Shown here: in pieces, positions 4,770 to 38,325 of the stretch
How the letters are laid out: the number at the start of each line of letters is the position of its first letter
Numbering within the stretch: the first letter of the stretch is position 1
From: a virus
Lineage: Duplodnaviria > Caudoviricetes
Virus record (IMG/VR): IMGVR_UViG_3300042402_000726
Coordinates: 1-53,148 of that record
Direction: 5' to 3' (one strand)
DNA length: 53,148 bases
Position numbers and translations under genes: made by a program
Notes under the pieces: model-generated
What the model saw: the letters and a program-made list of their open reading frames with translations, nothing else
Database searches by the model: none
Told to the model about the DNA's origin: nothing

Positions 4770-7579
4770 TATTGTGCATCCTCTTTACTTGGCAAATCAC
4801 GAGATTTTCCTTCGCTAAGTTGATTTAACCTTCTTTTTTCAAGTGCAATTCGTTTTTGAAGTTGTTCCATGTAGTTCAACATAATGTCTTTACGAACTTC
4901 TTTACTTTTTGCTAACGCGCCAGACAGTTGAGCTTGTGCTGCGCGTTCACCTTCTGTTGGATTGCTTCCGAACACATCTTTCATTCTCGATAAACTTTCT
5001 GTACTTAATAAATTTACCAATTTTCCAGTGTTAACAACAGTTGGATCTTCTGGCGAGAACGTTTCACCGTATTTCTGTTTAGCTATGTCAAACACATTAC
5101 CGGTGTACGCTACATCATTCAAATCATACGCTTGCTCAATCATTTTTTGAGCATTTTGTAAATTATTTAGCGTGTCTTCTTTTTCCCATAGAACTTTTCT
5201 GTCATTAGGTGTTAGCTTTTCACCTTCTTTTTGTTTATCTAAATATTTTTGATGTTCAAGATCATATCTTTCTCTAGCAACATCTAGTTGACCACCAGAA
5301 ATACCCGCTTGAATACTAGAGGTATTAGCATTTTGAGCAGCAATAGAAGGTGCCATGAGCAGTTGATTAACTTTAGCTTGCAACAACGGTATTCCATACT
5401 CACTAACAAACTTTTGAAACTCTGGTGTTCCTACTTTATAACCGCGATCAATTGCAACTTTACCGGCTTCTGACTGCGCCTTGGGTATCTCAGCTTTAAT
5501 CATTTCAGAAATAATAGCACGCTTATCTTTCATGCTTTCGCCAGCAAGACCACGAAGCGTGTTCAAATCCTCTTTCGCATTAGCCGCTTTTAATTGTTGC
5601 GCTTTCATTTGAAGTTCAAGATCAGAATTTCTGCGACCAGTTTTCTCTTTAGAGTAATCCGCCATTTCTCGGTTAATATTGCTAAGTGACTCAGTGAAAC
5701 CACCTGTTTTTGTAGGCGCACCAGCCGCAGCCGCAAGACGGAAAAACAACTCTGCTTGACTTAGATTGTCGTTTTCTGGCTGTCTTGCCTTTTTAAACAT
5801 CTCCATGAACGCTTCAGTTTCAGCGTTTGATTTTCTGCGTGCTTCTTCAAGCTCTTGTGCATAGTCATTTGTTGGCGTGCCGTAGGCTTGCAACATTTCT
5901 TGCATTTTTGCCATGTTGTCGCTTGGTGGTGCTTGCACTGCAATTGGTGCAACAGGTGCTTCTACTGGCTGTGGAATGCCTTGCTCTGGATTAGGCATTG
6001 CGCTGTTAGCAATATCAACATCTCCACCCACCGCATATTTTCTCGCCATGTCATGTACTGAGCCGCCTTTGGCATAATAATAAGTATTGTAATCATCTTC
6101 ACTGTCAAATCCTTGTGTAAGCCAAGCAGGTTTAGAGGCTTGTTGCGTTACACTTGGTTGTGAAACCAGTGACGTTGTAGTTTTATCTACTGGCGTAGTG
6201 TTAGATATTTGTTGTGTTCCTGTATTTGTTACACCATTCTTAACAGCTAAGTCTGTTAATGTGGGTGTAGTTTCCATGAAGAACTTTCGCTTATATGAAG
6301 GCACACCATTTGCATCAACTCCTTGAAATACGCCTGGTGTTGCTCCTGGAGCAACAATATGAGGTGGTTCTACGGCTGGAATTGTTAATCGATTATTTAA
6401 AGCATCTCTAGTTGCTTGATCTATATCCGATGATTGATACGATGTTGTTGAATCTACAGTAAAAGGCTTAGTAATTACATCATTTTTAACAGCTAAGTCT
6501 GTTAATGTAGGTGTTGTGTTTGTTACGACGGGTGCTACAGATTGGTTATTCGCATTTATAAAACTATTCATTGCGGCAGTATCTGTGTAATCACCTTGAT
6601 ACCCTGCATTAACTGCTTTATCTTCTAACTGCTGTTGACTGCTAGGTGCATATGTGTAAGTTACGCTTGTATCTTTAGTATCATTTCTATGATCATACTC
6701 ATACTGAGATGCATAACCAAGTTTTTGCCATTCTGGTCTTGTATCTTTAGTATCAACCGGAACTTTAGTATCAACCGGAACTTGAGTTAAACCATCATTA
6801 CTATTTTTAGCATCTAAATCTTCCAGTTCAGATCCATATCCTTGTTGTTGCCATGTTGGAAGCGTTGCTTCATAACTGGCTTGATCTTTGAATCCTTTTT
6901 GTTTATAGAGTGGCGTATAAGGCGTGTAAGCACCTGTATAGGTTGGATCACCAATAACATCGTTCCAATACGTTCCTGTCTTATTGTAGTTATCAATGCT
7001 ACCGTAAGGATTATACATTCCTTCATAAGGATTTGCATTAGACGCACGAGTGAATTGCTGTTGCAAATACATAGGTGTTTGCGCAATACGATCTTGGTAT
7101 GCGGTTTTGTATTGGTTATAAATATCACCTTTGTTTGCGTCAAAATCTGCTTTATTATTTAAATACGTTTTATAATCTCCTAACGCTGTTTGATACTTAT
7201 TTTGTTTATATGCATAAGAATCTTTATTTTTAATATCCCCACTTACATAGGTGTCATAAGTTTTTTTCGTTGCATCATAAGCATTTTTTTGAGCAGTATA
7301 ATCAGCCAACGATGTTTGATATTCTGCCCATGACTTTTGTGCCGCATCTAAATCAGATTGTGTTTGACCTTTTGCTAATTTTGTTGGTTTAGCTTTAGTG
7401 CCAGAAGTTAAACCATAATCAGTAACTATTGGTGCTTTTAATGTAAAATCATCCGGTGCAACAGGTTTATCTGGTGCTGTAGGCTCATTGACTACCGTAC
7501 CTTTAAATTGCGCAGGCAACGCCATCGACGCAGAAGTTACCCCGTATTGCTTCATCAATTTTGATAATTCGCTTGGCAT
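4769..7579 (-). CDS. Putative internal virion / ejection protein with low-complexity N-terminal half
   Basis: Position in the ejection cluster, helical C-terminal half, two YAxGGxV motifs, internal repeats. Confidence 0.65.
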   Translation of the reverse strand: MPSELSKLMKQYGVTSASMALPAQFKGTVVNEPTAPDKPVAPDDFTLKAPIVTDYGLTSGTKAKPTKLAKGQTQSDLDAAQKSWAEYQTSLADYTAQKNAYDATKKTYDTYVSGDIKNKDSYAYKQNKYQTALGDYKTYLNNKADFDANKGDIYNQYKTAYQDRIAQTPMYLQQQFTRASNANPYEGMYNPYGSIDNYNKTGTYWNDVIGDPTYTGAYTPYTPLYKQKGFKDQASYEATLPTWQQQGYGSELEDLDAKNSNDGLTQVPVDTKVPVDTKDTRPEWQKLGYASQYEYDHRNDTKDTSVTYTYAPSSQQQLEDKAVNAGYQGDYTDTAAMNSFINANNQSVAPVVTNTTPTLTDLAVKNDVITKPFTVDSTTSYQSSDIDQATRDALNNRLTIPAVEPPHIVAPGATPGVFQGVDANGVPSYKRKFFMETTPTLTDLAVKNGVTNTGTQQISNTTPVDKTTTSLVSQPSVTQQASKPAWLTQGFDSEDDYNTYYYAKGGSVHDMARKYAVGGDVDIANSAMPNPEQGIPQPVEAPVAPIAVQAPPSDNMAKMQEMLQAYGTPTNDYAQELEEARRKSNAETEAFMEMFKKARQPENDNLSQAELFFRLAAAAGAPTKTGGFTESLSNINREMADYSKEKTGRRNSDLELQMKAQQLKAANAKEDLNTLRGLAGESMKDKRAIISEMIKAEIPKAQSEAGKVAIDRGYKVGTPEFQKFVSEYGIPLLQAKVNQLLMAPSIAAQNANTSSIQAGISGGQLDVARERYDLEHQKYLDKQKEGEKLTPNDRKVLWEKEDTLNNLQNAQKMIEQAYDLNDVAYTGNVFDIAKQKYGETFSPEDPTVVNTGKLVNLLSTESLSRMKDVFGSNPTEGERAAQAQLSGALAKSKEVRKDIMLNYMEQLQKRIALEKRRLNQLSEGKSRDLPSKEDAQ

Positions 7580-7588
7580 ATCTGTTCC

Positions 7589-9007
7589 TTATATAGATTG
7601 AGCTACTTTGTATGCACCAGCACCAGTACCGGCAACAGTCGCTAATTGCATCAATGGTGACGCATTGTATGTTCCACCCACCGTCGTTTGACTTCCAGTT
7701 TGACTTGTAGGCGTAATCGGAGCTAAACCACGCACTTGCGTACTGAGCCAATCCATTTGCTGTTTTGGATAATTAAGTGCCGTATTGTATTGGGTTTGCG
7801 CAGCATTAAGCTGTGACTGCATTTGACCTTGTTGCGCTTGACCAGCCGCTTCAAGTGCCGCAGTGTCAGCAGTTTGCATTTGCTGTTGTTTACCTAGTAA
7901 TGTTGCATAATCATTTAAAGCACCTTGTTGACGACTCAAATCTTGCGCCTCTGCGGTTTGCATATTTTGCGCAGCACCCAATCCAAATTGCTGTTGTTGC
8001 TGACCAGCCGCTGCCTGTTGATTAGCAATCGTTGCTAAGTTTTGCTGTTGTGCTGCGGTTAGTTGGCCTTGTGCTTGACCAAGGTTGATGTAATTTTGTT
8101 GCTCTGCACTAGCTAATTGACCTTGCGTTTGACCGATATTTTGATAGGCTTGTGCTTGCGTTGCTGCTAATTGACCAGCAGTTTGTGCAAGTTGCCCTTG
8201 TCGCGTTAAATCTGCTTGATTTGCACCCAATGCTTGTGTGTAACCTTGATTTGCTAACTGCGCTTGTTGTTGTTGCAAAGTTTGATTAGCATCCCGAACA
8301 GCGCGGCTACCAAATTCGCCCATACGAGAACTGCCAAATTGACCGGCTTTTGTAAACGAGTCAGAAACTTGAGGTAAAATGTTTTCTCTCAAATTACGAC
8401 CAGATTGCTGCGCCATTACATCCATAACATTAGTTTGATATGGATTCATGTAATTTGAAACGTCAGTGTATGCGTTTTTGCTTGCTGATGTTAAATAAGG
8501 ATTAGCATTTGTTGTAATGTCAGCAGCAGACGTTCCCGAATTTGTCAATGAAGTCATAGCGTTTGCGGTAGGCGAATACGATTCCGCAGAACTAAAATTA
8601 GTCGCTGCGTTAGTTAACGGACTAAGTCCAGCCGCTGTTTCCCAATTTGTTTCTGCATTATCTAAGCCAGTTTTGACTCTTGCTGAATCTAAATAATCTT
8701 GTTGGTTTAATCCTAAATTTGTTGCAGTTTCTGATGTAGACAAACCCGACATTGTATTTTGAGTGTCTAACAGTGGCTGGCTATAGAAACCTTGATTATC
8801 TTGTACCTTTTGATATGCCTGTTGTTGCAAAGGCGAAAGCTCTGCAACCGTTGGCAATTCATACGCTTGATATGGCGTATTGGCAATATTTTGCGCCCAT
8901 TGCACTTGGTTATAGATAGCATCCTGCATCCATTGAGGTGTTAAGTTTGTGCTTAACGTAGTTCCTTGTTTTGAGGTTTGAGGTGTTCCCTCGAAAATAC
9001 TTCCCAT
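7589..9007 (-). CDS. Putative DNA-transfer (pilot/ejection) protein, Gln/Ala/Gly-rich
   Basis: VAELSPLQQQA, YMNPYQTNV, AGQFGSSR and C-terminal SPLMQLATVAG, a pattern typical of P22-like ejection proteins. Confidence 0.72.
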   Translation of the reverse strand: MGSIFEGTPQTSKQGTTLSTNLTPQWMQDAIYNQVQWAQNIANTPYQAYELPTVAELSPLQQQAYQKVQDNQGFYSQPLLDTQNTMSGLSTSETATNLGLNQQDYLDSARVKTGLDNAETNWETAAGLSPLTNAATNFSSAESYSPTANAMTSLTNSGTSAADITTNANPYLTSASKNAYTDVSNYMNPYQTNVMDVMAQQSGRNLRENILPQVSDSFTKAGQFGSSRMGEFGSRAVRDANQTLQQQQAQLANQGYTQALGANQADLTRQGQLAQTAGQLAATQAQAYQNIGQTQGQLASAEQQNYINLGQAQGQLTAAQQQNLATIANQQAAAGQQQQQFGLGAAQNMQTAEAQDLSRQQGALNDYATLLGKQQQMQTADTAALEAAGQAQQGQMQSQLNAAQTQYNTALNYPKQQMDWLSTQVRGLAPITPTSQTGSQTTVGGTYNASPLMQLATVAGTGAGAYKVAQSI

Positions 9008-11223
9008 TACATTGCTCCTCTTAAATAGGCTAATGGTGACTTAGCGTCCGGACTAATTTTTCCTCTTGCTAACGCTTTACCTTTTTGTGCGCGAATTTCA
9101 CGACGCATTTTGTCGAGCATTTGCGCTCCTGCTTTGTTTGATCCATCACCAAGCAACGCGACAGTTTCAGCGTCAATGACGTATTCACCGTCGGACAATT
9201 TTGCGTCAATTGTATCATCTCGACCAGATCCTGCTCCACGAGCAAATCTCGCTAATGGACCGCCCATCGCTTTTAAAACCACGTTGTATTGACCAGAAGC
9301 AATGGTTGGCCATGATTGCGCCATAAACTCTGGCAAGCTCATGTTTCTAGCAGTAGCGTTTTGTTGCATTTTATCCCAATCCCAAGCGACGTTTGGACGA
9401 TTGAAATACTCTTGCTGTTGCTTAGATAATTGCGCTACTGAGTCTTGAACAGGAGCAGGCGCATCTGAGAACATGGATTTACCAAGTGTACCCAGTGCCA
9501 ACGCACCACCGCCAATAAGTGCGGCTTTACCCCAATCAAAACCTTCTTTTTTAGCTTGATCAGTTGCTACTTGATCTGGACTTGTTCCTTGGTTATACAC
9601 GCCATTAGCATTGTTAGTGTAATTTGTAGGACCAGTAGGCGCATTAAGAACATTAATACCGTTTCCTTGATTGCCACTAATTTGAGCATAGCTTTCTGGA
9701 ATAAGTGTGTTAGACCCTAAAACATTTGACGGACTTAAATTATCAAATCCGTATTGTGTGAACGGTGCAGTTACAGCCGTGTTTGTCTGATTTCCTGCAA
9801 ACGTAGGCGTTCCAACCTGTCCTGGTGCTTGTGGAGCTTGATTATCAGTAAAGCTACCATAACCACCACTAGGCGCAGAAGAAGCATAAGTGTTTTGCGC
9901 TAAACCAAGTAAGCCAGAATTAGGTTGATTTGGCACCCAAGATTCTGCTCCGGTTGCAGGATCTGTCACATATTGACCACCACCTAATGAAGGAGAGTTG
10001 TTAGCTAATCCTAAACTTGCCGTATCATGCCATCTAATTTCGTTTGGTCCTTGCAAACTATTAATCGCCATGTCAGATGGTTTCATACCAATATCACTAA
10101 CATTAACTTGTTTACCCATATCAAGACTAAAGTTTTTATTTCCAGCATTAATATCGTTTAATTTTGCTTGATTTGCAGCGGATATTTCAGCAGGGGTTTG
10201 ATACTGCAAACCAGCCGCTAAACCAGCTAAACCACCAGAAATTGCAGCTTGTTTTGGTTTAAATCCAGCAGTCAATGCGTTACCAAAACCTTGACCAGCT
10301 CGATTTAATCCAAGTCCGATTGCAGAATCAGTCCCAATCCCACTTGCTGCATTAGCAATAGCACCACCAGCCGCACCAGTAGCACCACCAACTAATGCGC
10401 CTTTAAGAACATTTCCACCAGATATTCCAGCATTAGCCGCCCCAACACCCGCACCAATCAATCCACCGCCAAGCGCAGCTTGTCCAGCTTTACCAAGTCC
10501 AAGTCCAAGTGCGCTACTTGCTGAACCTCCTAATTGACCACCAAGACCACCACTTAACGCACCACCGACACCACCCATCAATGCGCCTTTCCAGCCACCG
10601 TTAATGGCACCAAGTCCAGCACCAAGCGTTGCCCCGCCTGCCATTGCAGCGGCAGGTCCAGTAAGACCAAAAAGCGTTGAGCCTACAGCCGTACCAATAC
10701 CAGGAATAAACATCAAGGCTGCTGGCAAAATGATTGATGTAAAAATTTTGAAAATACTTTTATATTCGTGCAAACCCGTGTTTGGGTTGATAGTTCCAGC
10801 ACCACCCATACGCTTTAACATTTCAGCTTCACGATGGTTAATATGCGCAAGCATATCGTCACCACCACGACCAGCGGCTTGCAATCGTCTTGCGGCAGTA
10901 ACTAAACCACCACCAGCGTAACCTTTCTTATTAAGATGATCTTGCAGTCCATACAATGCAATTAGAAGCGACACAATAAACACTACGTCATATTGTGGAG
11001 GCACCATATTTTCTTGAATCAATCCGTCTTTAATTGCTGACGCACGCACTTCTTCATATTTGTCTGGGTTTTGCAAAACAAACTCAAGCATTGCAATTGC
11101 ATCATCAAGATCTTCTGGCACAATTGGCATGCGCTCAACTTGCTTTTCCATTTGAGAAACGCCCTGTTGGAAACGCGGATCTTGCTGCGCCATTTGCATA
11201 ATTACATTTCTAATTTCGCTCAT
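9007..11223 (-). CDS. Putative ejection protein with glycine-zipper region and two AxGG-associated modules
   Basis: YAGGGLV...GRGGDDMLAHIN.RE...GTINPNTGLHEY, a long Gly/Ala/Leu hydrophobic region, and AMGG...GSGRDDTIDAKLSDGEYVIDAETVALLGDG. Confidence 0.7.
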   Translation of the reverse strand: MSEIRNVIMQMAQQDPRFQQGVSQMEKQVERMPIVPEDLDDAIAMLEFVLQNPDKYEEVRASAIKDGLIQENMVPPQYDVVFIVSLLIALYGLQDHLNKKGYAGGGLVTAARRLQAAGRGGDDMLAHINHREAEMLKRMGGAGTINPNTGLHEYKSIFKIFTSIILPAALMFIPGIGTAVGSTLFGLTGPAAAMAGGATLGAGLGAINGGWKGALMGGVGGALSGGLGGQLGGSASSALGLGLGKAGQAALGGGLIGAGVGAANAGISGGNVLKGALVGGATGAAGGAIANAASGIGTDSAIGLGLNRAGQGFGNALTAGFKPKQAAISGGLAGLAAGLQYQTPAEISAANQAKLNDINAGNKNFSLDMGKQVNVSDIGMKPSDMAINSLQGPNEIRWHDTASLGLANNSPSLGGGQYVTDPATGAESWVPNQPNSGLLGLAQNTYASSAPSGGYGSFTDNQAPQAPGQVGTPTFAGNQTNTAVTAPFTQYGFDNLSPSNVLGSNTLIPESYAQISGNQGNGINVLNAPTGPTNYTNNANGVYNQGTSPDQVATDQAKKEGFDWGKAALIGGGALALGTLGKSMFSDAPAPVQDSVAQLSKQQQEYFNRPNVAWDWDKMQQNATARNMSLPEFMAQSWPTIASGQYNVVLKAMGGPLARFARGAGSGRDDTIDAKLSDGEYVIDAETVALLGDGSNKAGAQMLDKMRREIRAQKGKALARGKISPDAKSPLAYLRGAM

Positions 11224-11666: not shown

Positions 11667-11667
11667 A

Positions 11668-15984: not shown

Positions 15985-16338
15985 TTATCCATTCCAGCGA
16001 GCAATCTTACCATCACGAACATCAATATGCGTAAAAGAATTGTAGCGTCCAAGACCTTTGCAATCGTCATCAAAATGCTTCATGAGATATTCTTGCACTT
16101 CTTTGGGCGGTACGTCTTTTACTTTAATGTCGGCTGCGTTACCTAAGACGTGCTGACTATGCTTTGCACCTCCCACTTTCGTGTTGTGTGCTTTGCATCT
16201 TCTACCGCTCATAATAGTAATAGGTTTGCCAAATGATTCTCTAATGCGGTTAAGTAGCTCTACGAGCTTAGGGTTTACTTCTTTTTCACCGCACCCGCAG
16301 TGGCACTCAAATTCTTCCGGTTTAAAATAGGTACTCAT
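15985..16338 (-). CDS. Endolysin, peptidase M15A-like Zn peptidase
   Basis: YFKPEEFECHCGCG, SGRRC..HN..VGGA..SQH..GNAADI, GLGRY..FTHIDVR. Likely start is MSTYF at 16338. Confidence 0.9.
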   Translation of the reverse strand: MSTYFKPEEFECHCGCGEKEVNPKLVELLNRIRESFGKPITIMSGRRCKAHNTKVGGAKHSQHVLGNAADIKVKDVPPKEVQEYLMKHFDDDCKGLGRYNSFTHIDVRDGKIARWNG

Positions 16339-16339
16339 A

Positions 16340-16528
16340 TTATTTACTTTCTGATGCAAACAGTCCAATCATACCAAACACTACACCTGCCGCAGTCAAA
16401 CCATCATGGATAGGACCTTCCTCAATGTTCATACCAGCCATCGTAGCTAATGCCGCAACACTTGCATAGGTAGAAGGCTCTTTTAATCTTGCTTGTAAAT
16501 AGTTCCACGCTTTAAGAATTTTGTTCAT
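16340..16528 (-). CDS. Putative holin
   Basis: 62 aa with an RLKEPSTY motif and two hydrophobic segments, directly upstream of the endolysin. Confidence 0.7.
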   Translation of the reverse strand: MNKILKAWNYLQARLKEPSTYASVAALATMAGMNIEEGPIHDGLTAAGVVFGMIGLFASESK

Positions 16529-22105: not shown

Positions 22106-22702
22106 CTAACCTTTTTTGCTTGATGCTTTTTTAGCTTCAGACAACGCGATTGCCATTGCTTGTTTTTTGTTTGTCACTTCTGGGCCTTTTTTACTGCCAG
22201 AATGCAAATCACCCGCTTTGAATTCACCCATTACTTTGCCAATTTTTGCTGATGCTTTAGCAGATCCGCCTTTTTTCATCATAGCTTGACCAGGCACATT
22301 AGCTTGTGCAATTGCATTTAAAGGTGATGCTTGTTGTTGTCTTTTTGCCAATAATGTTTCACCACGTTCTTTAGGTGCAATCATAGGCTCACCACGTCTG
22401 CGATTTTGTGGTGCTTTGACCACTTGACGTTTAACTACTTCTTCACGTTGCATTCTTGGTGTTTCAAGCGATTCATGACGAACCATTGCTTCACGGCTTG
22501 GGTATTTTTCACCCGTAGCACGTTCAACGATAGGACCGCCTTTTGCTTTCATCATTTTGCCGCCACACGATCCGCCTTTGTCGTATCCACTGCATGAACC
22601 ACCTTTAGCATAGGCTTTTGCAGGTTCTTTTGCGCATGATCCTGTGTAGCCTTTGTCAGAGGGAAACTCAAACTCTGTTACATATTTTAATGATTTGCCC
22701 AT
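22106..22702 (-). CDS. Basic protein with repeated xxKGG motifs and a C-terminal DUF6496-like domain
   Basis: YAKGG, YDKGG, KAKGG, MKKGG. KIGKVMGEFKAGDLHSGS..G..VT..KQA.AIALSEA. Confidence 0.78.
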   Translation of the reverse strand: MGKSLKYVTEFEFPSDKGYTGSCAKEPAKAYAKGGSCSGYDKGGSCGGKMMKAKGGPIVERATGEKYPSREAMVRHESLETPRMQREEVVKRQVVKAPQNRRRGEPMIAPKERGETLLAKRQQQASPLNAIAQANVPGQAMMKKGGSAKASAKIGKVMGEFKAGDLHSGSKKGPEVTNKKQAMAIALSEAKKASSKKG

Positions 22703-23866: not shown

Positions 23867-23924
23867 ACATGAAAGGTTTTACTATGCAGTCTTCATGTCG
23901 TCTGTCTGGTCAGTCGTGCATAGC
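23867..23924 (-). promoter_or_regulatory. Putative cis-acting pseudoknotted RNA element abutting the RBS of 23854
   Basis: Stem GCTATGCA/TGCATAGT. Loop ACATGAAG pairs with downstream TTTCATGT, which sits next to GAGGA. Confidence 0.5.
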
Positions 23925-26835: not shown

Positions 26836-27741
26836 CTATTTGTTGTTACGATCATACTCTGCGTAACGCTTTAAATACTTGTTACGAAGTACAGGATCAT
26901 CCCAGACACCAGCTTCAACTAAAGCTGATTTACGTTCTGGACTCACATACATTTCTTTGCGGGTTGATGTTGGTGCATGTTCGCGACCAGATCCAACAGA
27001 CGGACCACCACGCGCAGTGCGTTCACTTTGTTTCTTTCCAAACTTTTCTGGTAGTCTGCGTGCCGCACGTTTTCTAAGCTCGTCCCAGTATTCACTTGTT
27101 TGTGGATTGAAACCGTCTTTTGCTAACGTCTGATCAATAGCAATAACAATTGAAGAATCTTCATCGCGACCTTGTGCATCATACCAAGGATTATCAGCAA
27201 TAAATTCTTTGGCGTAGTGCATTGTCAAATCATCCATTTGATTTGGTTGCGCTACTGGACGTTGTTGTGCTGCCTGCTGTTTCTGGAATTGCAATTGCTG
27301 AACTTTAGCAATCGCTTGGTCACGGTAACGCATTGCTTGCGCTACATCTTCGCCATTTCCACGCTCAACCGCTTTGGCAATAACACGCTCTGCCATGTTT
27401 GCTTCTTGCGCTGCTTGATTGATATACGCATCATACGCGCCTAAATCAGTTTGGTGTGCGCGTACTTCTTGAACAGAAACTCTGCGCTCCAAATCATCAT
27501 TGCGTTTACGAAGGAATTCCAACTCAAGTTTATCACGACTAATCGCCTGTGTTTTTCTTTCTTTACGTTCTAACTTTTCTTTTCTACGACGCTCACGAAT
27601 TGCTTCACGCTCACTGTCAACGTCATCGTCGTCATCGCGTGCAATTTGCTCGTCATAAGCCTCATCGCTTAATTCATTTATATCTTCGACAATTTCAATT
27701 TCATCATCATTGTCGTCATCTTCTCTAATTACGTCTGCCAT
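26836..27741 (-). CDS. Capsid scaffolding protein
   Basis: Acidic N-terminus, long coiled coil, NPWY...YWDEL, basic C-terminal helix. Upstream of the capsid genes. Confidence 0.78.
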   Translation of the reverse strand: MADVIREDDDNDDEIEIVEDINELSDEAYDEQIARDDDDDVDSEREAIRERRRKEKLERKERKTQAISRDKLELEFLRKRNDDLERRVSVQEVRAHQTDLGAYDAYINQAAQEANMAERVIAKAVERGNGEDVAQAMRYRDQAIAKVQQLQFQKQQAAQQRPVAQPNQMDDLTMHYAKEFIADNPWYDAQGRDEDSSIVIAIDQTLAKDGFNPQTSEYWDELRKRAARRLPEKFGKKQSERTARGGPSVGSGREHAPTSTRKEMYVSPERKSALVEAGVWDDPVLRNKYLKRYAEYDRNNK

Positions 27742-27754: not shown

Positions 27755-28165
27755 CTAGATGAATGCTTTGATCTTTAATGGATCACCAGTGACTTGACCA
27801 ATAATATCCAAGTCGTTAAAAATTACAAACATTGCCGATTCGTCACTATCGGGAACTTTAACTTCCCAACGATCACCACCATACTTGGCGACACGAACAA
27901 ACTCGCCAGCTTGACACCACGCACCTTCCGGCCACGCTGTCATGTCATTACGGTTTTTAAACGCAAGTGGTCCTAGCGAAATCACTTTGCCGATCTGTGT
28001 GTTCCACTTCTCGGTGTCTTGCGTTCCGATATCGAGAATAATCCCGCCACTTGTTTTCTTTTTTGGAGTGCGAATCTGAATCAGAACGCGGCTTCCAAAA
28101 GGCTGAATTCCTGCATCTACTGCTGGAAAAGCCTCTGCCATTGCATTCTCAAAGGTCATTGTCAC
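27755..28165 (-). CDS. Co-chaperonin GroES (Cpn10)-like protein
   Basis: IQPFGSRVLI, KTSGGIIL, GKVISLGP, GEFV...KYGG, IFNDLDII. Confidence 0.88.
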   Translation of the reverse strand: MTMTFENAMAEAFPAVDAGIQPFGSRVLIQIRTPKKKTSGGIILDIGTQDTEKWNTQIGKVISLGPLAFKNRNDMTAWPEGAWCQAGEFVRVAKYGGDRWEVKVPDSDESAMFVIFNDLDIIGQVTGDPLKIKAFI

Positions 28166-31041: not shown

Positions 31042-34000
31042 TCACATGTACTTGTTTGCTAATTCTTGTAAACCTACACTGCCGCCTTTTGCATAGCCAA
31101 GATTTCTAAGTACCTTATCGGTAATAATTCCGCCATAAGGTTTCATTTGTAATGCGCGAATATCTCTTGTTCTTGGATTTTTTAAATCCATCAAACCACG
31201 ATACTCTGCAACATCTGGCATTAGTTCATATGCACTTATATCTCTATCAAGCATACCTAATCCTTGACCGGGAACACCTTTAGGATATGCACGATGTCCA
31301 GACTCTTGAATAATAGGATTGCCAACAAATATTTGACCAACATTTTGTAAACCGGTATCGGGTGCTAAAAGTTGGCTAGGATCAGCAACAGCAAGTCTAG
31401 CTTCGCCAATGCTAATCCCACCAGCGTTTCTGTATTTTGTATCAAGATGATTTTTTAATTCTTTTCTAACTTTATCGGGTGTATTTCTAAATTGATCTAT
31501 ACCTTCTTCAGATTCAATCCCTTTAAAGTCTGGAATAAAATCTTTAATGCTTTTATTAACGGCACGTTTCTCTTTCTTGTTCATATTAGCGTTCATGTAC
31601 TTAAGCATTGTTTCGCCTGTCATGTTCGCATAATCTCCGCCCGTTGGAGCCATTCGCCAAGGCATATAAAGTGGATCAAGACCGCCCGTTCTTGCGCTTA
31701 ATTCTTTGCCATATTTCATAATGGCGTTAACTGGATCTTTCCCTGATGCCCATACTTGGCCTGGATTATTAAACATATAATCTTGACCGCCTTGTAAATC
31801 AACATCAACTGGACGATCATTAATGTAATGTAGCTTTCCAACATTAGTACGATCTGACATAGAAGTTACAAACGGATAGCCTTCATAATTTGCAAGACTA
31901 ATAATACGCTTTTCATTTTCTGGACGTGTCAACTGTAACATCATGTTTTGCAACTTTTCTTGCTCTAATTTTCTATCATCAAATCGCAAGTCATAACCTA
32001 AATCACCAATTCGTAATTTATGAATTGTACCAAGCACACCACTCGCAGACTCTGGAGCAAACGGCATCGCACCTGTCTGCGCAAGACCAGCAAGATCTAA
32101 ACCTGCCTGTGCCTGCTCATCCATTGACGGTTTAATCCCAACAGGATACCAGCTTGACTCATCCAGTATTTTTTGTGGTCTACCACCAGCAATGTCAACG
32201 TTGCGCATAAATGCATTGCCAGCACGCTTTGCCGCTTCAACTGGATGCAAGATTGTCGATGCAATCATTGAGTCGTTATCACCAAAGTTTTGTTTGGCAC
32301 TCATGTCATCAAAGTGCGCCATCGCTCTGCGATACAAACGCTCGTGCGCTGGATCTTCAAATTCTGATACTGAGCCACCGTCAGCATATTTATTAGCCAT
32401 TAAATCATCAAAATGCGCCATTGCTCTGTTATATAATCTTTCTGCTAAAGTATCGCTATTTACTGACCCACCATTGGCATATAAATCTTTTTCAGTAGCA
32501 AACACTGGCTTACCTTCTTTAATGCGCTTGTGTGCGTGTTCTATGGCTTTACTCACAATGTTATGTGGTATGTGTTCACCATCTTTAATTTTTAAGATGT
32601 GTTGCACTTCTTCTGTTGTCAATGTAGGTACAAGCGTTGGAATATCCATTTCTTTGTCATTGATAGGTACACCAATTGAATATTCGGTCATCACGCCAGT
32701 ACCGTCTGGACGCTCAAGCTCTCCAAAGTAGCCAAGACCTTTCTTGGTTTTGTCTGGTCTATCGCCATAGCCATAGTCACTTTCTTCGTACTTGTCGTGT
32801 AGTGCTTGCACGCTTCCGCCTTCAGCGTAACCTTTTTTTAAATACTTGTTGTAACGTGCATCAAGTGATTTTAATGATTTAGCATCAGTAAACTGTTCGT
32901 ATTGCTTTAACAGATCATCAAGCTCTCTATCTTTAGCACTTTTTAACATGTGAAAGTATTCATTCTTACCAGCGGTGCTGTTAATTACTCGTGCTAATTC
33001 TTCTGGATTGTCAGCATTACGACTTAAATATTCATGAAATCTTGGCAAATCTTCAACACCAAGACCAGATGCTTCATTGATGGCCTTTACTTCCTCATCA
33101 GATAAATTTTTTCCGAGCTTCATGCTGCCACCAATCAACCATTGACCCGTCATATTTGGACTGGTTTTGTATCGATAAAATCCACCTTCTGGCAATTGAT
33201 CTGTGATATGCGCAAACTTTGGAATCATAATGCCTTTTTTATTCATTCCTCGTTCGTTTGCCAATGTTTGCCAATCAACATCATTAGGAAACTCTACTTC
33301 TGCCCATGTATGTTCGCTTGGTCTATACACAGGAGGTTTACCACCTTTTCCAATATGCGTTGCAACAGGAACATCACCTGCATGCCAGCCTGGTCTATAC
33401 GCTAAAGGACCGAGTAATGATTTAACTTTATCTGCATTTTGAGTAGCAGGTGCGCCTGCTTCAGCTGCAACCCATTCATCAGATGGCACTGGCTTATCCG
33501 CATTTACAAACAATGGGTAAAGTGTATCTGGATCATTTTCTTTTGTTCTAAACAATTTATATGCTTTGACAGTTTTTTCTGGTGCGCCCATAGATAATGC
33601 CATTGGATTTAAATGTTCAATCAAATAATCTGGATCGCGCATTTGTTCAATTGTTGGCACGGTGTCTTCTAATGCAGTTTTTGTTGCATCAAAAAACTTA
33701 GTTGCATTTGGATAAGCACGCTTTAGTTGCTCTAAGTCTGCTGCATAATCGCCACCGCCAGCCAACTCATCCAGTTTAGACATAATGCTATCATCTGATA
33801 AATCCACTTCCCCGCCTTCTGCCCACTTAACCTTGTCCGCCCAGTACGCGGCACTGCTTTTTCCTTTGGCAATGTTCTTTGCATGACGTGCCTTGAACGA
33901 TTCACGCTTTGCTGTCATGCGATCTGACTCACCTTCTTTTGGCTTGCCTGCTGTTTCAGCACCTTGCTCACCAAAGCGAATTATCTTCTCTTTGCCATCG

Positions 34001-36240
34001 ACCATTGTTTTCACAATGTGTGACTTGGTTGGATGGTTTGGCGTGCGTTGTGGTTTGTCTAACTGCAAACTGTCTTTGTCTACTCTGCCGCCTTGTGCGT
34101 AGCCTTGATCATCATTAGGTAATTTTTGACGCAATGCTTCACGTTTATCATACGCCCAATCATACCAATCACTTCCAGTTTTGAAGTCTACGCCTTTAGG
34201 CATGCGTCTTGTTTTTCTGTACGCTTTCATTTGCTTTTCTAAATCATTGAAACGATCAATATCAGTGATTGGTTTAACTTTGTTTAAATTGCGCGTAACA
34301 ACACGCGGCACTTCATCACTGTAGGTAACGAAGTTGCGCACGCCTTCTGGATTAGCAACCTTTGCTTTTTCGCCCATGTAAGTCGTGCCTGGAATACCTA
34401 ACTCATAAAGTTTTTGTGCGCCTTCTTTACCAGAACCAAATCGTTGCAAAATTGAGCTACCTTTTTCAACAGGATCATAATCTGCACCTTCTGGATGATA
34501 CAAGTCTGGATCATGACTTTGCAGAATATTTCTAACGTATTCGCTTTGCTCAGAAAGTGGCTTGTCGTAATCAAGAAAATGCTCGATTGACATAGGATCA
34601 ACTGCTTCGCGCTCTTTTGGAAACTCCATTGACACTTCATACAAGTGTGAGCCTTTTTGCTTTTTGTATAAGTTTTCGCCAATCTTTTGCGCTGGCAATC
34701 GTTTTGGCAAATCTTCTGGATAATCAGCGTATGACTCGTTGAGATAGTCTTTTACTTCATCTGGACGCTCGTGCATCATGTAGCGTTCATACACTTCCAT
34801 CGATGGATAATCTTGACGACGCTCTGCTTGATTGTACAAATTCATCAATTGCTCATCCATCCAGTCATCCTGTGGTGAATAAGTAGTAGCAACATAAGGA
34901 TCCTCGGTAATGTAGTTACCCCACCCGTAAGCCTGCCCACCTTCACCAGATCCCATGTGTGCTGTGTCAAACTCTTTAAACTTGTGTGGTGATCCGTGAT
35001 AGCCTTTGATGGCCATGCCAACAGGTAAATCCTCGGTTGCCTTAACACCTGGTGCTAATGTTGTCAGTGCATCAGCAAGTGACTGCGCACGACCACGTTT
35101 AAACTGTGGTACGTTGCTCATCTCTGGTATCTGCATTGGTGCATTGCCATAAGACCAGTTCTCAATCTCCTCTGGTGTTTTGCCCATGAGTAAATCACCA
35201 GCACCTAAGCCACCGGCTAGTGGCACCCAACTTGGAACTGTGTATTGATTGCCAACGTCACGCGCACTGCCAAGCATCTCGGCAAGTTTGCCAAGGTTCT
35301 CGTTTTGGTCTTGTGCTTTTACAATCCCACCTTCTGCGTACTTCTCTTTCAGCTCATCCAAACTACCAGCACGCTTTGTAATTTCTGGATACTCATCACC
35401 GAACATGACGTAATTTCTTGTGCCTTTGTCAGTGCTACGCGATGTTGCGTCTAAGTATTTAAGACCAGGTATGTCAAGGTTTTTTAAATATTGTTCAGCG
35501 TCTTTAATGGCAGATGCAAATTCATCATCATATCCGCTACGCATATATTTTAAAAAACTCTCTCCAGTTTTTTGTGACGGATCTAAATACCATTGTTTCT
35601 GATCTTTGTAAGCCTTGTTAGCGTTTTTGTAAAAATCAGATTTTTTTAATTTGTTTCTTACATAATCACTTTGCTCGCTCAATGGTTGATCCCAGTCTAG
35701 CAAATGATGCTCACCAAGTGGATCTGTTGCTTCACGCTCTGCGTTAGGCCAACGGATTGAGGTTTCGTAGATGTTTCCGCCTTTTTGCGCTTTCATATCT
35801 TCTATTTCTTGCAACAAAGCAGCTTCTTTTTCTTTATCACCTCTTAATTTTGCGGTATCAGCATGGTATTTTTTTAAAAATATTTTATTTTGATACTCAT
35901 CAACTGGAACACCTGCTGTCATATAAGTTTTTGCAACCAAAGGATTTTCTGCAAAATAAAGTCCATGTCCATATGCTTGCGCACCTTCGCCTGTTCCAAT
36001 CTTTGACATGTCAAACCGATCAAACAAATGTGGCGTACCATGATAGGCTTTGATCGCACCACCAAGTCCAGCGGTATCAATAATGAAATTAGGATCACGC
36101 ATCTGCTCAGTCGTTGGAACTGAACGCACCGCTGCGTCTTTTAATCCAGTGATGAATTTTGTCGCATTAGGATAACCACCAAGCAATTGCTCGTAGTCTT
36201 CTAAGCCATATCTGCTTGCTAAATCTTTTAAGTCTGCCAT
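31042..36240 (-). CDS. Large polyvalent (multi-effector) protein with two ADP-ribosyltransferase-like domains and at least four other modules, separated by [YW]AxGGxV motifs
   Basis: ATG at 36240 with GGAG RBS. YHGTPH.F..FD...IGTGEGAQAYG.GLYFAE and YHGSPH.F..FD...MGSGEGGQAYG.G.YITE. Seven AxGG motifs and duplicated leader segments. Confidence 0.8.
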   Translation of the reverse strand: MADLKDLASRYGLEDYEQLLGGYPNATKFITGLKDAAVRSVPTTEQMRDPNFIIDTAGLGGAIKAYHGTPHLFDRFDMSKIGTGEGAQAYGHGLYFAENPLVAKTYMTAGVPVDEYQNKIFLKKYHADTAKLRGDKEKEAALLQEIEDMKAQKGGNIYETSIRWPNAEREATDPLGEHHLLDWDQPLSEQSDYVRNKLKKSDFYKNANKAYKDQKQWYLDPSQKTGESFLKYMRSGYDDEFASAIKDAEQYLKNLDIPGLKYLDATSRSTDKGTRNYVMFGDEYPEITKRAGSLDELKEKYAEGGIVKAQDQNENLGKLAEMLGSARDVGNQYTVPSWVPLAGGLGAGDLLMGKTPEEIENWSYGNAPMQIPEMSNVPQFKRGRAQSLADALTTLAPGVKATEDLPVGMAIKGYHGSPHKFKEFDTAHMGSGEGGQAYGWGNYITEDPYVATTYSPQDDWMDEQLMNLYNQAERRQDYPSMEVYERYMMHERPDEVKDYLNESYADYPEDLPKRLPAQKIGENLYKKQKGSHLYEVSMEFPKEREAVDPMSIEHFLDYDKPLSEQSEYVRNILQSHDPDLYHPEGADYDPVEKGSSILQRFGSGKEGAQKLYELGIPGTTYMGEKAKVANPEGVRNFVTYSDEVPRVVTRNLNKVKPITDIDRFNDLEKQMKAYRKTRRMPKGVDFKTGSDWYDWAYDKREALRQKLPNDDQGYAQGGRVDKDSLQLDKPQRTPNHPTKSHIVKTMVDGKEKIIRFGEQGAETAGKPKEGESDRMTAKRESFKARHAKNIAKGKSSAAYWADKVKWAEGGEVDLSDDSIMSKLDELAGGGDYAADLEQLKRAYPNATKFFDATKTALEDTVPTIEQMRDPDYLIEHLNPMALSMGAPEKTVKAYKLFRTKENDPDTLYPLFVNADKPVPSDEWVAAEAGAPATQNADKVKSLLGPLAYRPGWHAGDVPVATHIGKGGKPPVYRPSEHTWAEVEFPNDVDWQTLANERGMNKKGIMIPKFAHITDQLPEGGFYRYKTSPNMTGQWLIGGSMKLGKNLSDEEVKAINEASGLGVEDLPRFHEYLSRNADNPEELARVINSTAGKNEYFHMLKSAKDRELDDLLKQYEQFTDAKSLKSLDARYNKYLKKGYAEGGSVQALHDKYEESDYGYGDRPDKTKKGLGYFGELERPDGTGVMTEYSIGVPINDKEMDIPTLVPTLTTEEVQHILKIKDGEHIPHNIVSKAIEHAHKRIKEGKPVFATEKDLYANGGSVNSDTLAERLYNRAMAHFDDLMANKYADGGSVSEFEDPAHERLYRRAMAHFDDMSAKQNFGDNDSMIASTILHPVEAAKRAGNAFMRNVDIAGGRPQKILDESSWYPVGIKPSMDEQAQAGLDLAGLAQTGAMPFAPESASGVLGTIHKLRIGDLGYDLRFDDRKLEQEKLQNMMLQLTRPENEKRIISLANYEGYPFVTSMSDRTNVGKLHYINDRPVDVDLQGGQDYMFNNPGQVWASGKDPVNAIMKYGKELSARTGGLDPLYMPWRMAPTGGDYANMTGETMLKYMNANMNKKEKRAVNKSIKDFIPDFKGIESEEGIDQFRNTPDKVRKELKNHLDTKYRNAGGISIGEARLAVADPSQLLAPDTGLQNVGQIFVGNPIIQESGHRAYPKGVPGQGLGMLDRDISAYELMPDVAEYRGLMDLKNPRTRDIRALQMKPYGGIITDKVLRNLGYAKGGSVGLQELANKYM

Positions 36241-36249
36241 GGTCAACTC

Positions 36250-38325
36250 CTAGTAATTATGTGGCGCATCAATTGATGCAACGATGTCGTCTACTTTCAT
36301 AGGATCGTACATTGTTGGTGGTGTGCCGACAAGTCCACCGTTGGCAAAATTGACATTTTTTTGAAGAAAGTCATCCATCAATGATTCAATCTCATTATCA
36401 GTTGCATATCTTCCAAACTTTTCTTTTGCTATGTTTTGCAATTCTGGATGAAGATGAGAGTTTTCTCGATTTAAATCAATCAACCCAGTGTTTTCAAAAT
36501 CCCCAACACTCGACCAATCTTTTGATCTCACAAAGTCTTGCACAGCAGGAAGATATTTTGCATTAGGCGCAGCGTTTTGTTTGCCTTTGATTTGAACGAT
36601 TTTTGGCGGAGCATCACCATATATCATGCGCATATATTCATTTGCGGCATCTAAATCTTTTAAATGCGGGTTTTGTTGATTGTACTCAGCTATATTTGCT
36701 TGAAGAATCTTACGTTCATCATTGGGTAAGTTCATATAAATATTTTCATAATGATGCGCAGGATTCATATTTGTTGTTTCAATCGTCACATGCGGTTCAC
36801 CACGTCTATCACGCAATGAGTAAATATTGGTATCACCCCTTCCTACCTCATCACAATACTGACCGACACAATGCCCCATCGTGTCACCTTCAAAATTCAG
36901 TGCGGCTTGTAGTGCATCACGTCTTTCAATTTCTTTATAATCAAGCAAAGCATCTTCTGGTGTAGTGCCGCTAGACCATACCACACCATTTTGATCAAAT
37001 ATTGCTGGATTACCACGACTGTTTTCAGCTATATAATGACCTTCCTGCAATGTAGGCTCTGGCATTTTCATTTGCATCCAAGCTAATCCTTGATCTGGAT
37101 ATTCTTTGTGCATTACGGTTGCAGCGTTGCGACCTTCTTTGAGCTTCTCAGCGTCACGCCATGCGTTGATCTTGGCAACATGCTCAACAGCCTGCGGCAT
37201 GGAAACGCGACTGAGCTTTGCTGGATCTATGCGCAAAAAGTCTGGAAGATCTGTGTCTGGGCGTGTAGCTTTGCGAAGTTCGTCAGCAAGTTTGTCAAAT
37301 CCAGTTCCCATCATACTATCTGGTAGATAAACCCTATCTTCATCGCTAAGGTTTGATAGCCAAGGATTTCTGTTTTTATCCTCGCTATTAACGTATTTAA
37401 CTGTTATAGGCGTAATGTTTCTATCAGCGTAATGTTCCCACAGTTTACCTATGCCGGTTTTTGCAATCCCTTCTACTGGGTATCCTGCACTGTGACGTTT
37501 ATCCATCACATCATCAATGTCAAATTCACGAGGATCTCTTGGCGTGTAATGCAGAGGATTGTAACCTTCAAGCTCTGAGATCTTGTCTTGAATTGTAAGA
37601 GCATCTCTATTGGCATTAGCCATGCGATTAGCAATTACCTCTGGTGGTAATCCCATGTCTTCATACTTAGCGGCAAGCTCTTGCAAGTTTGGGATCTTTG
37701 ATTGTTGCTGACTGATAAGCACATCACGTTTGGCAGGCCATTCCTCCGCAATGCGTCGAATAGGATCTTCTGGCGTACCCATTTCGTTTTTGATGTACTT
37801 GCCGAGCTTTTGCTGTAGCCAATCGTTAACTGCCATGACCGGTACAGTTTCATTATATTCGTGTGGCATTAGGTGCATACCGGCACGCGCATAACCAGCA
37901 AGCTCTGGATCTACTGATCGAGTAAATTGATTAGCGGCTTTTTCTGGCGTTCTGCCAAAAGTATCAAGCCAATTACCACCCTTTGGCTTGATGATCATCC
38001 CAACATTGCCAGCCATTGCATTGCGTGCGGTGCTTTCGGCAGGACCGGCAAGCAACATGGCTGTGTCAGCTAACGATTGTGCGCGTCCTTTTTTGAATTG
38101 CGGTACGTTACTCATCTCCGGAACACGCATAGGCGCATCACCATATGACCAGTTTTCTATTTCTTCGGGTGCGTTTCCAAGTAACATGTCACCAGCACCA
38201 GATCCACCAAGTAGCGGAACCCAGTCTGGAACAGAATATTGATTGCCAGATGATTTGGCGGTTTGAAGAAGCTCTGCAAGTTTTGCAAGGCTAGGCTGTT
38301 GTGGTATTGCTCTGTTATACGGCAT
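36250..38325 (-). CDS. Polyvalent-type protein with a PcfJ-like C-terminal domain
   Basis: EGDTMGHCVGQY...IYSLRD..GEPHVTIE...IVQIKGKQN. N-terminal leader shared with 31042..36240. C-terminal FANGGLV. Confidence 0.75.
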   Translation of the reverse strand: MPYNRAIPQQPSLAKLAELLQTAKSSGNQYSVPDWVPLLGGSGAGDMLLGNAPEEIENWSYGDAPMRVPEMSNVPQFKKGRAQSLADTAMLLAGPAESTARNAMAGNVGMIIKPKGGNWLDTFGRTPEKAANQFTRSVDPELAGYARAGMHLMPHEYNETVPVMAVNDWLQQKLGKYIKNEMGTPEDPIRRIAEEWPAKRDVLISQQQSKIPNLQELAAKYEDMGLPPEVIANRMANANRDALTIQDKISELEGYNPLHYTPRDPREFDIDDVMDKRHSAGYPVEGIAKTGIGKLWEHYADRNITPITVKYVNSEDKNRNPWLSNLSDEDRVYLPDSMMGTGFDKLADELRKATRPDTDLPDFLRIDPAKLSRVSMPQAVEHVAKINAWRDAEKLKEGRNAATVMHKEYPDQGLAWMQMKMPEPTLQEGHYIAENSRGNPAIFDQNGVVWSSGTTPEDALLDYKEIERRDALQAALNFEGDTMGHCVGQYCDEVGRGDTNIYSLRDRRGEPHVTIETTNMNPAHHYENIYMNLPNDERKILQANIAEYNQQNPHLKDLDAANEYMRMIYGDAPPKIVQIKGKQNAAPNAKYLPAVQDFVRSKDWSSVGDFENTGLIDLNRENSHLHPELQNIAKEKFGRYATDNEIESLMDDFLQKNVNFANGGLVGTPPTMYDPMKVDDIVASIDAPHNY

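Follow-up and report, generated by a model that had tools for sequence, protein, structure and literature searches.

An A-x-G-G-x-V peptide as a candidate inter-module joint, and possible processing site, in podophage cargo and ejection-type proteins

Gly-Gly sites mark the junctions of several viral polyproteins, among them substrates of the adenovirus protease, of coronavirus PLpro (L-x-G-G) and of ASFV pS273R, and occur in ubiquitin-like tails as well; each viral site has its cognate papain-like or CE-clan protease, which cleaves behind the Gly-Gly. In phages and conjugative elements, polyvalent proteins have been proposed to be processed into pieces (Iyer, Burroughs, Anand, de Souza and Aravind 2017, PMC5512222), and the same paper assigns the task to peptidase domains within the chain, whether zincin-like, assemblin-like or of another type. 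Because such a peptidase hub is described in ~36% of polyvalent proteins (PMC5512222), it is not obligatory. A term search of the main text of that paper returned no junction motif. Virion proteomics has picked up phi24B gp47, a protein of a related type (bioRxiv 10.64898/2026.04.10.717836). Tape-measure cleavage was already recognised for lambda in the 1970s, and myophages have lately come under the same suspicion (PMC11972413). T5 pb2 is cut after R1127 to give pb2* and a 92-residue pb2C (PMC10038345), and lambda gpH loses a ~14-kDa C-terminal piece at a Gly-rich region, the products being gpH* and gpHC (PMC12617516).

We analysed positions 1-53,148 of IMG/VR record IMGVR_UViG_3300042402_000726, a virus (Duplodnaviria; Caudoviricetes) of the podophage type; this whole stretch of 53,148 nucleotides is referred to below as the window. 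The strict motif is [YFW]-A-x-G-G-x-V and its wider core A-x-G-G-x-V. Scanning 48 ORFs (15,651 residues) recovered 11 strict copies in four of them, all at the coordinates given in a preliminary description of this DNA (Table 1), against an expectation of 0.055 and a maximum of 2 in 2000 within-protein shuffles. That description had noted that the copies use different codons and so reflect selection on the peptide, and had seen no copy in capsid, portal, terminase or replication proteins. The motif is non-random by the shuffles, the codons do differ between copies, which supports peptide-level selection, and the capsid, portal, terminase and replication ORFs among the 48 lack the strict motif. 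The looser A-x-G-G-x-[VIL] yields one string each in a 720-aa tail protein, the primase-helicase and an AAA_24 protein. All strict-motif carriers in this phage are putative internal or ejected late proteins.

Table 1. Positions in the window of the motif-bearing proteins, motif copies and associated C-terminal peptides.
Feature	Position	Strand	Remark
936-aa internal or ejection-type protein	4769..7579	-	motif pair splits variable N-terminal from conserved C-terminal half
YAKGGSV (6056-6076) and YAVGGDV (6017-6037), 936-aa protein	6017..6076	-	13 residues apart
738-aa protein	9007..11223	-	Gly-rich hydrophobic stretch and tape-measure-like C-terminal element
C-terminal 99 aa of 738-aa protein	9010..9306	-	KAMGGPL (9253-9273), then GE[FY]V-type element
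YAGGGLV, aa 102, 738-aa protein	10900..10920	-	strict motif
198-aa basic protein (DUF6496)	22106..22702	-	variants YAKGGSC (22592-22612) and KAKGGPI (22529-22549)
1734-aa polyvalent protein	31042..36246	-	TTG start; 1732 aa counted from first ATG
C-terminal tail GLQELANKYM, 10 aa	31045..31074	-	after last motif of 1734-aa protein
YAKGGSV, aa 1718	31075..31095	-	last copy in 1734-aa protein
YADGGSV, aa 1287	32368..32388	-	second of pair; HSPs to seven relatives start exactly there
YANGGSV, aa 1256	32461..32481	-	first of pair bracketing 24-aa helix
YAEGGSV, aa 1140	32809..32829	-	helix ends at Tyr; remainder low-confidence coil
WAEGGEV, aa 808	33805..33825	-	coil, pLDDT <50; closes phrog_7595 module
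YAQGGRV, aa 716	34081..34101	-	coil, pLDDT <50; phrog_7595 module begins directly after
YAEGGIV, aa 303	35320..35340	-	next unit's leader homologous to 691-aa protein N-terminus
691-aa stand-alone unit, PcfJ-like domain	36250..38325	-	N-terminal leader recurs within 1734-aa protein
FANGGLV (36328-36348) and conserved C-terminal tail GTPPTMYDPMKVDDIVASIDAPHNY	36253..36348	-	end of 691-aa protein

The largest carrier, the 1734-aa protein, is encoded between the large terminase and portal genes and is built of units placed head to tail (two ART-PolyVal domains, a phrog_7595 module, a phrog_30118 module and others), which are separated by seven motif copies. It resembles the polyvalent proteins described in PMC5512222 in that several unrelated effector-type domains, ART-PolyVal domains among them, are strung along one polypeptide whose gene has a phage packaging and virion context, by terminase and portal. 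It departs from those carrying the built-in peptidase hub of that paper, as Pfam (E up to 1) found no peptidase family in either the 1734-aa or the 691-aa protein. An AlphaFold2 model of residues 700-1330 of the 1734-aa protein (mean pLDDT 71.8) places all five motifs that it covers in coil, with pLDDT <50 within that coil or right beside it, between confidently predicted elements. BLASTP HSPs of the protein to ~25 relatives end at residue 814, by WAEGGEV. The placement of the motif between modules, also asserted in the preliminary description, is thus upheld both by the model and by the clustering of HSP ends. Foldseek returned no PDB match at E <=0.001 for the 700-1330 model; its weak rows included ADP-ribosyltransferase-fold proteins.

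The motif recurs in related phages. Across 78 portal-linked loci the coding strand holds 225 copies and the opposite strand 0. Each of the 69 related loci that extend upstream of the portal has a motif-bearing ORF on that side, and the nine portal-linked loci that lack the motif have no sequence there. Motif copies coincide with the sites of module swapping, fusion and splitting among relatives: 59 of 106 internal BLASTP HSP ends (15 of 40 distinct positions) lie at most 12 residues from a motif, where 9.4% would be expected (binomial p 1.6e-6), the HSP ends coming from related sequences and being non-independent. The modules of the 1734-aa protein are separate or differently ordered in relatives; its unit 804-1146, for example, is a separate 426-aa gene in L006. 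Relatives at 86-87% portal identity have an 848-aa cargo protein in place of the 691-aa and 1734-aa proteins, and in a relative (L132/G001) the last Tyr of the tail of the 691-aa protein is the point of fusion to GYAEGGSV and the module that follows.

Homologues of a single module give a closer view of how the motif is placed. We took the best 120 of 362 database homologues of the phrog_30118-type domain; 72 of them contain A.GG.V, with 124 copies versus 2.4 expected. In these 120, only two of the 124 copies fall inside the domain core; upstream of the core 48 of 67 copies, and downstream of it 39 of 55, lie within 20 residues of its edge, and the motif brackets the domain. We also read 11 short homologues from the same 120, picked for their shortness and most of them on long contigs, and six of the 11 are without any Gly-Gly site, their ends lying just outside the domain. 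In IMG/VR, 72 of the 80 DNA-pattern matches among those listed are in frame, in ORFs of at least 140 aa; a tape-measure PHROG is matched by 20 of the 69 motif-bearing ORFs among the matches listed, and the A-x-G-G-x-V core recurs in tape-measure and ejection proteins there. Valine fills the last position in 151 of 152 distinct contexts, although the search pattern also permitted I and L; in the same logo, where A, G and G are set by the pattern, the flanks carry little information. The literature matches listed for motif strings were primers, acronyms and unrelated peptides.

Three further proteins carry the motif or variants of it. At least one copy of the motif pair in the 936-aa protein is retained in four of five complete relatives. 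The strict YAGGGLV of the 738-aa protein is not conserved among five complete relatives. All five relatives keep an A-x-G-G-x-L site near the other end of that protein; it lies 90 aa from the C-terminus in them and 87 aa in this phage. The order of elements is that of a tape measure: a Gly-rich hydrophobic stretch at ~155-340, KAMGGPL at 651-657, ...LSDGEYV... and the C-terminus. Its C-terminal 99 aa match phrog_6090 (E 5.9e-6), phrog_3547, phrog_5448 and phrog_25241, the tape-measure PHROG matches of the protein being weak to moderate. TIGR01541, which scores lambda gpH 701-853 at 144 bits, matched neither the 738-aa protein nor its C-terminal 99 aa, and BLASTP of the lambda gpH C-terminus against the 738-aa protein was not significant. 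Caulobacter phage RW has a homologue of the 738-aa protein with the GE.V element and without the A.GG site; the motif is therefore dispensable in this family. Both the 738-aa and the 198-aa proteins contain low-complexity Gly-rich stretches.

Tape measures of model phages show what may happen at such a site. The T5 pb2 sequence at the mapped cut reads ...FVPR↓AEGGMM..., so that A-E-G-G directly follows the cut, and from AEGG onward pb2 aligns with an environmental tape measure reading GY-AEGGSV (E 2e-4). The 738-aa protein is similar in having its A-x-G-G after a hydrophobic stretch and before a GE-type element, and the distance from site to C-terminus is 92 aa in T5 pb2, 87 aa in the 738-aa protein and 90 aa in its relatives. 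T5 pb2 differs from the [YFW]..V form in having Arg before Ala and Met at the V position; its single site, moreover, is in a tail protein, and this phage has many sites, in putative head-associated cargo proteins. The T5-like core is common to the polyvalent copies, and the T5-like position is found only in the 738-aa family. As the preliminary description had pointed out, lambda gpH carries such motifs: FATGGFT (at 733) and YATGGYV (at 778) lie either side of a GEFV element, within the region that gives up the ~14-kDa piece; a cut before A734 is predicted to release a computed 12.5 kDa piece. JBD30 gp46 has the same motif/GEFV layout. The tape measures of Mu, P2 and HK97 and the T7 core proteins lack the motif.

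We tentatively favour the view that the motif is a conserved inter-module joint, and probably a processing site, in proteins thought to exit the virion. A joint or cutting signal is more likely than a packaging address, because the motif sits in inter-module linkers and at the T5 pb2 cut, and the position of that cut directly before A-E-G-G lends the cleavage-site reading indirect support by analogy. Under this proposal the aromatic-prefixed motif would be the local form of a widespread joint peptide, core A-x-G-G-x-V, that fills disordered linkers of tape-measure, podophage ejection and polyvalent effector proteins. The joint would string effector units into the 1734-aa chain and end the 691-aa unit, divide the 936-aa protein into variable and constant halves, and precede the tape-measure-like C-terminal element of the 738-aa protein. 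Proteolysis at or beside it (in T5, immediately before Ala) could then turn one translated chain into several separate proteins, either during assembly or post-ejection. We infer both the packaging and ejection of the motif-bearing proteins of this phage and the cutting of any of them. T5 is the sole mapped site backing the link between motif and cleavage, by analogy, and there Arg rather than an aromatic residue precedes Ala.

What would do the cutting was sought within the window. Pfam on 45 window ORFs gave Peptidase_M15_3 (15985-16368), of endolysin type, as the sole peptidase; PHROGs on 21 late ORFs and NCBIfam on six window proteins found no protease, a 176-aa head-module protein matched just viral clusters without names in the ESM Atlas, and no gene tracks the motif by presence or absence across eight relatives. 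With no candidate protease in the window, a host enzyme or self-cleavage would be required. SEA-type self-cleavage (G↓SVVV) was set aside, most motif copies being without a nucleophile there. A likeness to the GroES mobile loop was likewise rejected: the phage GroES-like TSGGIIL has different spacing, and RW has a GroES gene and no motif. The motif is like the viral Gly-Gly polyprotein sites in presenting a small residue, x and Gly-Gly in exposed linkers, and unlike them in two respects: the window has no cognate cysteine protease (Pfam, 45 ORFs; PHROGs, 21 late ORFs), and the sole mapped phage site, that of T5, is cut four residues earlier. A broader and less probable extension would make A-x-G-G-x-V a cleavage code common to tailed phages for proteins leaving via the tail, one activity both maturing tape measures and cutting polyvalent cargo into separate effectors. 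If so, that activity might be a host protease or assembly-triggered self-cleavage, the 1734-aa protein would be a polyprotein giving ~seven products of 3-48 kDa, and the cuts would fall before A734 in lambda gpH and as mapped in T5 pb2.

The arrangement of the copies bears on what else the joint could be. Terminal copies stop just 10-25 residues short of natural C-termini, and 6-13 residues separate some neighbouring copies, which is odd for a pure cleavage code; a hinge or a ligand fits as well. An uncleaved flexible hinge, spacing the modules and letting a long chain thread, unfolded or extended, via the portal and tail channel, strikes us as possible but the less probable account. In it, the T5 cut beside a Gly-Gly joint would be incidental, and module-swapping recombination would be tolerated at the joint because the joint is structurally neutral. 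The modelled disordered coil, the concentration of module exchange at the motif, the tandem copies a few residues apart, the failure of Pfam scans and of the presence/absence comparison to find a protease, and phage RW managing without the motif all agree with such a hinge. A generic linker, however, has no need of fixed A, G, G and V residues, nor of a favoured residue ahead of them, maintained across unrelated phage lineages, and the near-exclusive V of the logo and the invariance of A, G, G and V in the tail alignment are difficult to accommodate. The 87-92 residues kept to the C-terminus between T5 pb2 and the 738-aa family likewise point to specific recognition. Chance or low complexity, to which the Gly-rich stretches of the 738-aa and 198-aa proteins might be thought to lend weight, has a negligible claim and is refuted by the shuffles, the strand count and the 72 in-frame matches among the 80 IMG/VR matches listed.

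The preliminary description had proposed either a cleavage site or, as its main reading, a common address tag by which unrelated effectors would be loaded. In its docking form, the motif, with or without the peptide that follows it, would bind the portal, the scaffold, the capsid interior or the tail lumen and so load cargo. Short peptides can indeed load HK97-fold shells with cargo: encapsulin cargo-loading peptides do so, and so does the T4 capsid-targeting sequence. The carriers in this phage are without exception putative internal proteins, several copies together could raise avidity, and the last copy always precedes a short conserved C-terminal peptide, reading YDPxx[VI]DxI..NQ[FY]M in this clade and THAHHLEIEERPL in another lineage. 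We nonetheless regard this role as improbable for the motif itself, and the claim is unsupported, because single-domain stand-alone homologues (six of the 11 read) lack the motif, and because tape measures, which belong to the tail and not the head, carry it just as typically. The model shows no fold at the motif. Moreover, lambda gpH ~690-817 is not resolved in the cryo-EM map described in PMC12617516, nor T5 pb2C in that described in PMC10038345, nor the motif-bearing part of JBD30 gp46 in the map described for it, which argues that these stretches are not stably docked. Any address is more likely to be the lineage-specific short peptide after the last motif. A resemblance between the scaffold C-terminus NKYLKRYAEYD, an ending conserved among scaffolds, and NKYLKKGYAEGG of the polyvalent protein was rejected; it is without Gly-Gly and too short to weigh.

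If the motif is a joint and probable processing site, as we tentatively favour, its sharing with tape measures predicts a lambda gpH cut adjoining A734 and supplies a consensus for mutation. The main text of PMC5512222, by term search, gives no cleavage signal for the proposed processing of polyvalent proteins, and the conserved joint would provide exact candidate sites for it. Should no cutting occur, the motif would still be useful for delimiting the modules of giant phage proteins. Module exchange at a common joint would explain how close relatives come to carry very different cargo sets.

Of the 48 window ORFs examined, 4 contain the strict motif, [YFW]-A-x-G-G-x-V, with 11 copies in total. 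When each protein was shuffled 2000 times, the mean was 0.055 strict copies and the maximum was 2, indicating that the observed count is far above the shuffled-proteome background. The preliminary description had placed every strict copy exactly, and its statements that codons differ between copies and that the strict motif is missing from capsid, portal, terminase and replication proteins were confirmed across the 48 ORFs. The variants it named are likewise present, and three other proteins each contain a single looser A-x-G-G-x-[VIL] string. The window is an entire IMG/VR virus record (53,148 bases), estimated to be 98% complete, and its late genes lie on the minus strand.

Late genes of the window, in order from the large terminase to the terminal block
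Feature	Position	Strand	Remark
Large terminase	38315-39865	-	first of the late genes as ordered
691-aa PcfJ-like protein		-	between large terminase and polyvalent gene
1734-aa protein	31042-36246	-	two ART-PolyVal matches
Portal	28490-31003	-	
GroES-like co-chaperonin (Cpn10)	27755-28165	-	mobile loop TSGGIIL; between portal and scaffold
Charged 301-aa scaffold-like protein	26836-27741	-	
Major capsid protein	24677-25591	-	
198-aa DUF6496 protein		-	after major capsid protein
SU10-type adaptor and tail genes		-	after 198-aa gene
Terminal block: 738-, 472-, 936- and 674-aa proteins		-	end of late order

Among named phages, Caulobacter phage RW and related phages (portals 51% identical), MW202545, which is an uncultured record, and the Roseobacter phages CRP-901/902 are the nearest. 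Cpn10 has a counterpart in 7 of 8 relatives compared, including RW and MW202545; in CRP-902, BLAST gave none at the threshold applied. An endonuclease VII-type gene directly after the capsid gene (23910-24557) and a T5orf172/MUG113-domain gene near the small-terminase region (40385-40879) look like inserted mobile nuclease genes because none of the 8 relatives compared has a counterpart of either.

A portal-based IMG/VR search, in which 325 of 328 candidate stretches were confirmed and 78 loci kept, showed that the motif recurs in related phages. In ORFs of at least 100 aa from these loci, the motif was counted 225 times over 303,204 residues on the portal strand and 0 times over 142,101 on the opposite strand; all 69 loci with sequence upstream of the portal carry the motif there, and the 9 motif-less loci begin at the portal. 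The logo over 152 distinct contexts reads G-[YFW]-A-[EKD]-G-G-[S]-V, with V at the last position in 151 (I and L being permitted) and almost no information in the flanks. Five complete relatives have 3-7 strict copies per genome, carried by homologues of the polyvalent/691-aa, 936-aa and 198-aa proteins, once by a 557-aa-type protein and once by an unlabelled ORF. MW202545 has six copies spread over three late ORFs, CRP-902 gave a partial match only, and the RW genome has none in real genes.

Several lines of evidence establish the motif as a conserved inter-module joint. The 1734-aa protein, polyvalent as Iyer et al. 2017 (PMC5512222) use the term, consists of units strung head-to-tail: the leader of the 691-aa protein (N-terminal aa 13-95) is repeated directly after the motif at 303 (aa 320-400), a second leader (aa 17-60) is repeated after the motif at 808 (aa 833-880), and phrog_7595 (96 positions) spans the interval from the motif at 716 to the one at 808. 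The leader modules, ~45-85 aa at unit starts, are of two kinds, YPNATKF...EQMRDP and NQY[ST]VP.WVP...ENWSYG. In BLASTP against relatives' ORFs, polyvalent modules are present, absent or rearranged, with breaks at 303, 716, 808, 1140 and 1287; 59 of 106 internal HSP ends (15 of 40 distinct positions) fall no more than 12 residues from the centre of a motif, where 9.4% would be expected (binomial p 1.6e-6), these ends stemming from related sequences and not being independent events. Unit 804-1146 is a stand-alone 426-aa gene in the related locus L006, and similarity of the 936-aa protein to relatives begins at 497-545, at or just past its motif pair. In an AlphaFold2 model spanning polyvalent residues 700-1330 (mean pLDDT 71.8, alignment of 93 rows), each of the 5 motifs sits in coil including or adjoining a segment with pLDDT below 50, with a helix ending on the motif aromatic residue at 1140 and 1287; together with the BLASTP breaks, this supports the proposal that motifs lie in linkers between domains. 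The phrog_30118-type domain (aa 889-1139, window 32830-33579) has pLDDT above 90 and no significant PDB match by Foldseek, the weak rows being proteins with the ADP-ribosyltransferase fold; its relatives in the database number at least 362, with fusion partners ART-PolyVal, ASCH, GNAT and PF19846.

The same arrangement extends beyond the clade. A domain-level search with polyvalent residues 800-1150 returned 362 proteins at E ≤1e-5; the best 120 hold 124 copies of A-x-G-G-x-V in 72 proteins (shuffles 2.4, maximum 8), only 2 of them inside the conserved core, and 48 of 67 upstream and 39 of 55 downstream copies lie within 20 residues of its edge. The residue preceding Ala is mostly K, F, Y, L or M, and the invariant core is therefore A-x-G-G-x-V. 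An IMG/VR DNA-pattern scan for one variant, G-Y-A-E-G-G-x-V, matched at least 119 stretches, of which 80 loci were fetched; 72 of the 80 matches listed are in frame in ORFs of at least 140 aa. Among the 69 distinct ORFs in the matches listed, 20 match tape-measure PHROGs, 6 major-tail, 2 tail-fibre/baseplate and 7 other families, 2 phrog_5880, to which the window's 674-aa protein belongs, and 1 a DNA-ejection protein; 31 have no match. These figures describe a sample of that single variant rather than a census. Small proteins of ~145 aa in six loci (L085, L104, L109, L110, L125, L133) match a major-tail-protein PHROG and carry T-G-Y-A-E-G-G-S-V-D mid-chain, where the motif may not occupy a linker.

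Tape measures offer a possible mechanism. PMC10038345 places the T5 pb2 cut after R1127 by mass spectrometry; the T5 record reads ...NSFVPR|AEGGMMYPG..., and pb2C from AEGG on aligns with an environmental tape measure reading GY-AEGGSV (E 2e-4). In lambda gpH (L083), FATGGFT (733) and YATGGYV (778) flank a GEFV element, in agreement with the preliminary description; by analogy with T5, a cut in aa 733-785 would fall before A734, giving a computed fragment of 120 aa and 12.5 kDa, and PMC12617516 puts the C-terminal piece lost from a Gly-rich region at ~14 kDa. JBD30 gp46 has FASGGHI, a SDSIPILASNDEFM element and HATGGQI, its proposed cut at 1066 being a prediction only in PMC11445458. The window's 738-aa protein shows this order too, running from a Gly-rich hydrophobic stretch through KAMGGPL to an element of the GE[FY]V type. 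The final 99 residues match tape-measure PHROGs (best E 5.9e-6), and TIGR01541 matches neither these nor the whole protein; [KYLM]-A-x-G-G-x-L is kept in 5 of 5 complete relatives, and the A-x-G-G site lies 87 residues from the C-terminal end in the window, 90 in relatives and 92 in T5.

Weighing the homologue, tail, T5/lambda and protease evidence together, we tentatively favor a processing site, which, by analogy with the single mapped T5 site and the lambda region, would be the likeliest mechanism for the joint, if by no means an assured one. Counting against it, profile scans and comparison with relatives found no protease in the window genome other than an M15 endolysin-type peptidase, the RW homologue lacks the motif, and copies lie 6-25 residues from one another or from natural C-termini. 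A hinge that stays uncleaved is a less likely alternative. The earlier proposal of a shared address tag on unrelated effectors was not supported and is improbable: it would require the motif on every cargo, yet Gly-Gly sites are missing altogether from 6 of the 11 short homologues examined. Motif-less short homologues of the phrog_30118-type domain begin and end just outside it, and homologues that carry additional modules or tails show the motif at every junction.

Eukaryotic viral polyproteins also have Gly-Gly sites, but as the window yielded no cognate protease, the likeness is one of functional analogy and not of membership. Iyer et al. 2017 (PMC5512222) propose that built-in peptidases process polyvalent proteins; no junction motif turned up when the main text of that paper was searched by term. 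Provisionally, no earlier description of this joint motif was among the noisy motif-string literature matches listed.

A short lineage-specific peptide regularly follows a protein's last motif. Its form in this clade is x(1-5)-Y-D-P-x-x-[VI]-D-x-I-..-N-Q-[FY]-M (window 36253-36327 and 31045-31074; related loci L012-L082, alignment A2), often duplicated as motif-helix-motif-helix; in 37 aligned tails the A, both Gs and the V never vary, and Y, D and D hardly do. In an unrelated lineage the tail after the motif reads THAHHLEIEERPL. If any address exists, this peptide is a better candidate than the motif. The scaffold-like protein ends ...LRNKYLKRYAEYDRNNK, a tail conserved in 62 relatives without Gly-Gly; its likeness to ...RYNKYLKKGYAEGGSV in the polyvalent protein (32815-32850) may be coincidence.

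The joint also marks where close relatives differ. In L132/G001, a related genome, the 691-type tail ...DAPQ-GYAEGGSV-DKDSLQL... is followed without a break by the phrog_7595 module; in the window, by contrast, the 691-aa protein terminates at ...DAPHNY. G001 (L224-L226), whose portal is 86-87% identical to that of the window, encodes at 39615-42158 one 848-aa cargo protein, made up of a 691-type unit and a phrog_7595 module, in place of the window's 691-aa and 1734-aa proteins (31042-38325). Cargo content changes fast between close relatives.
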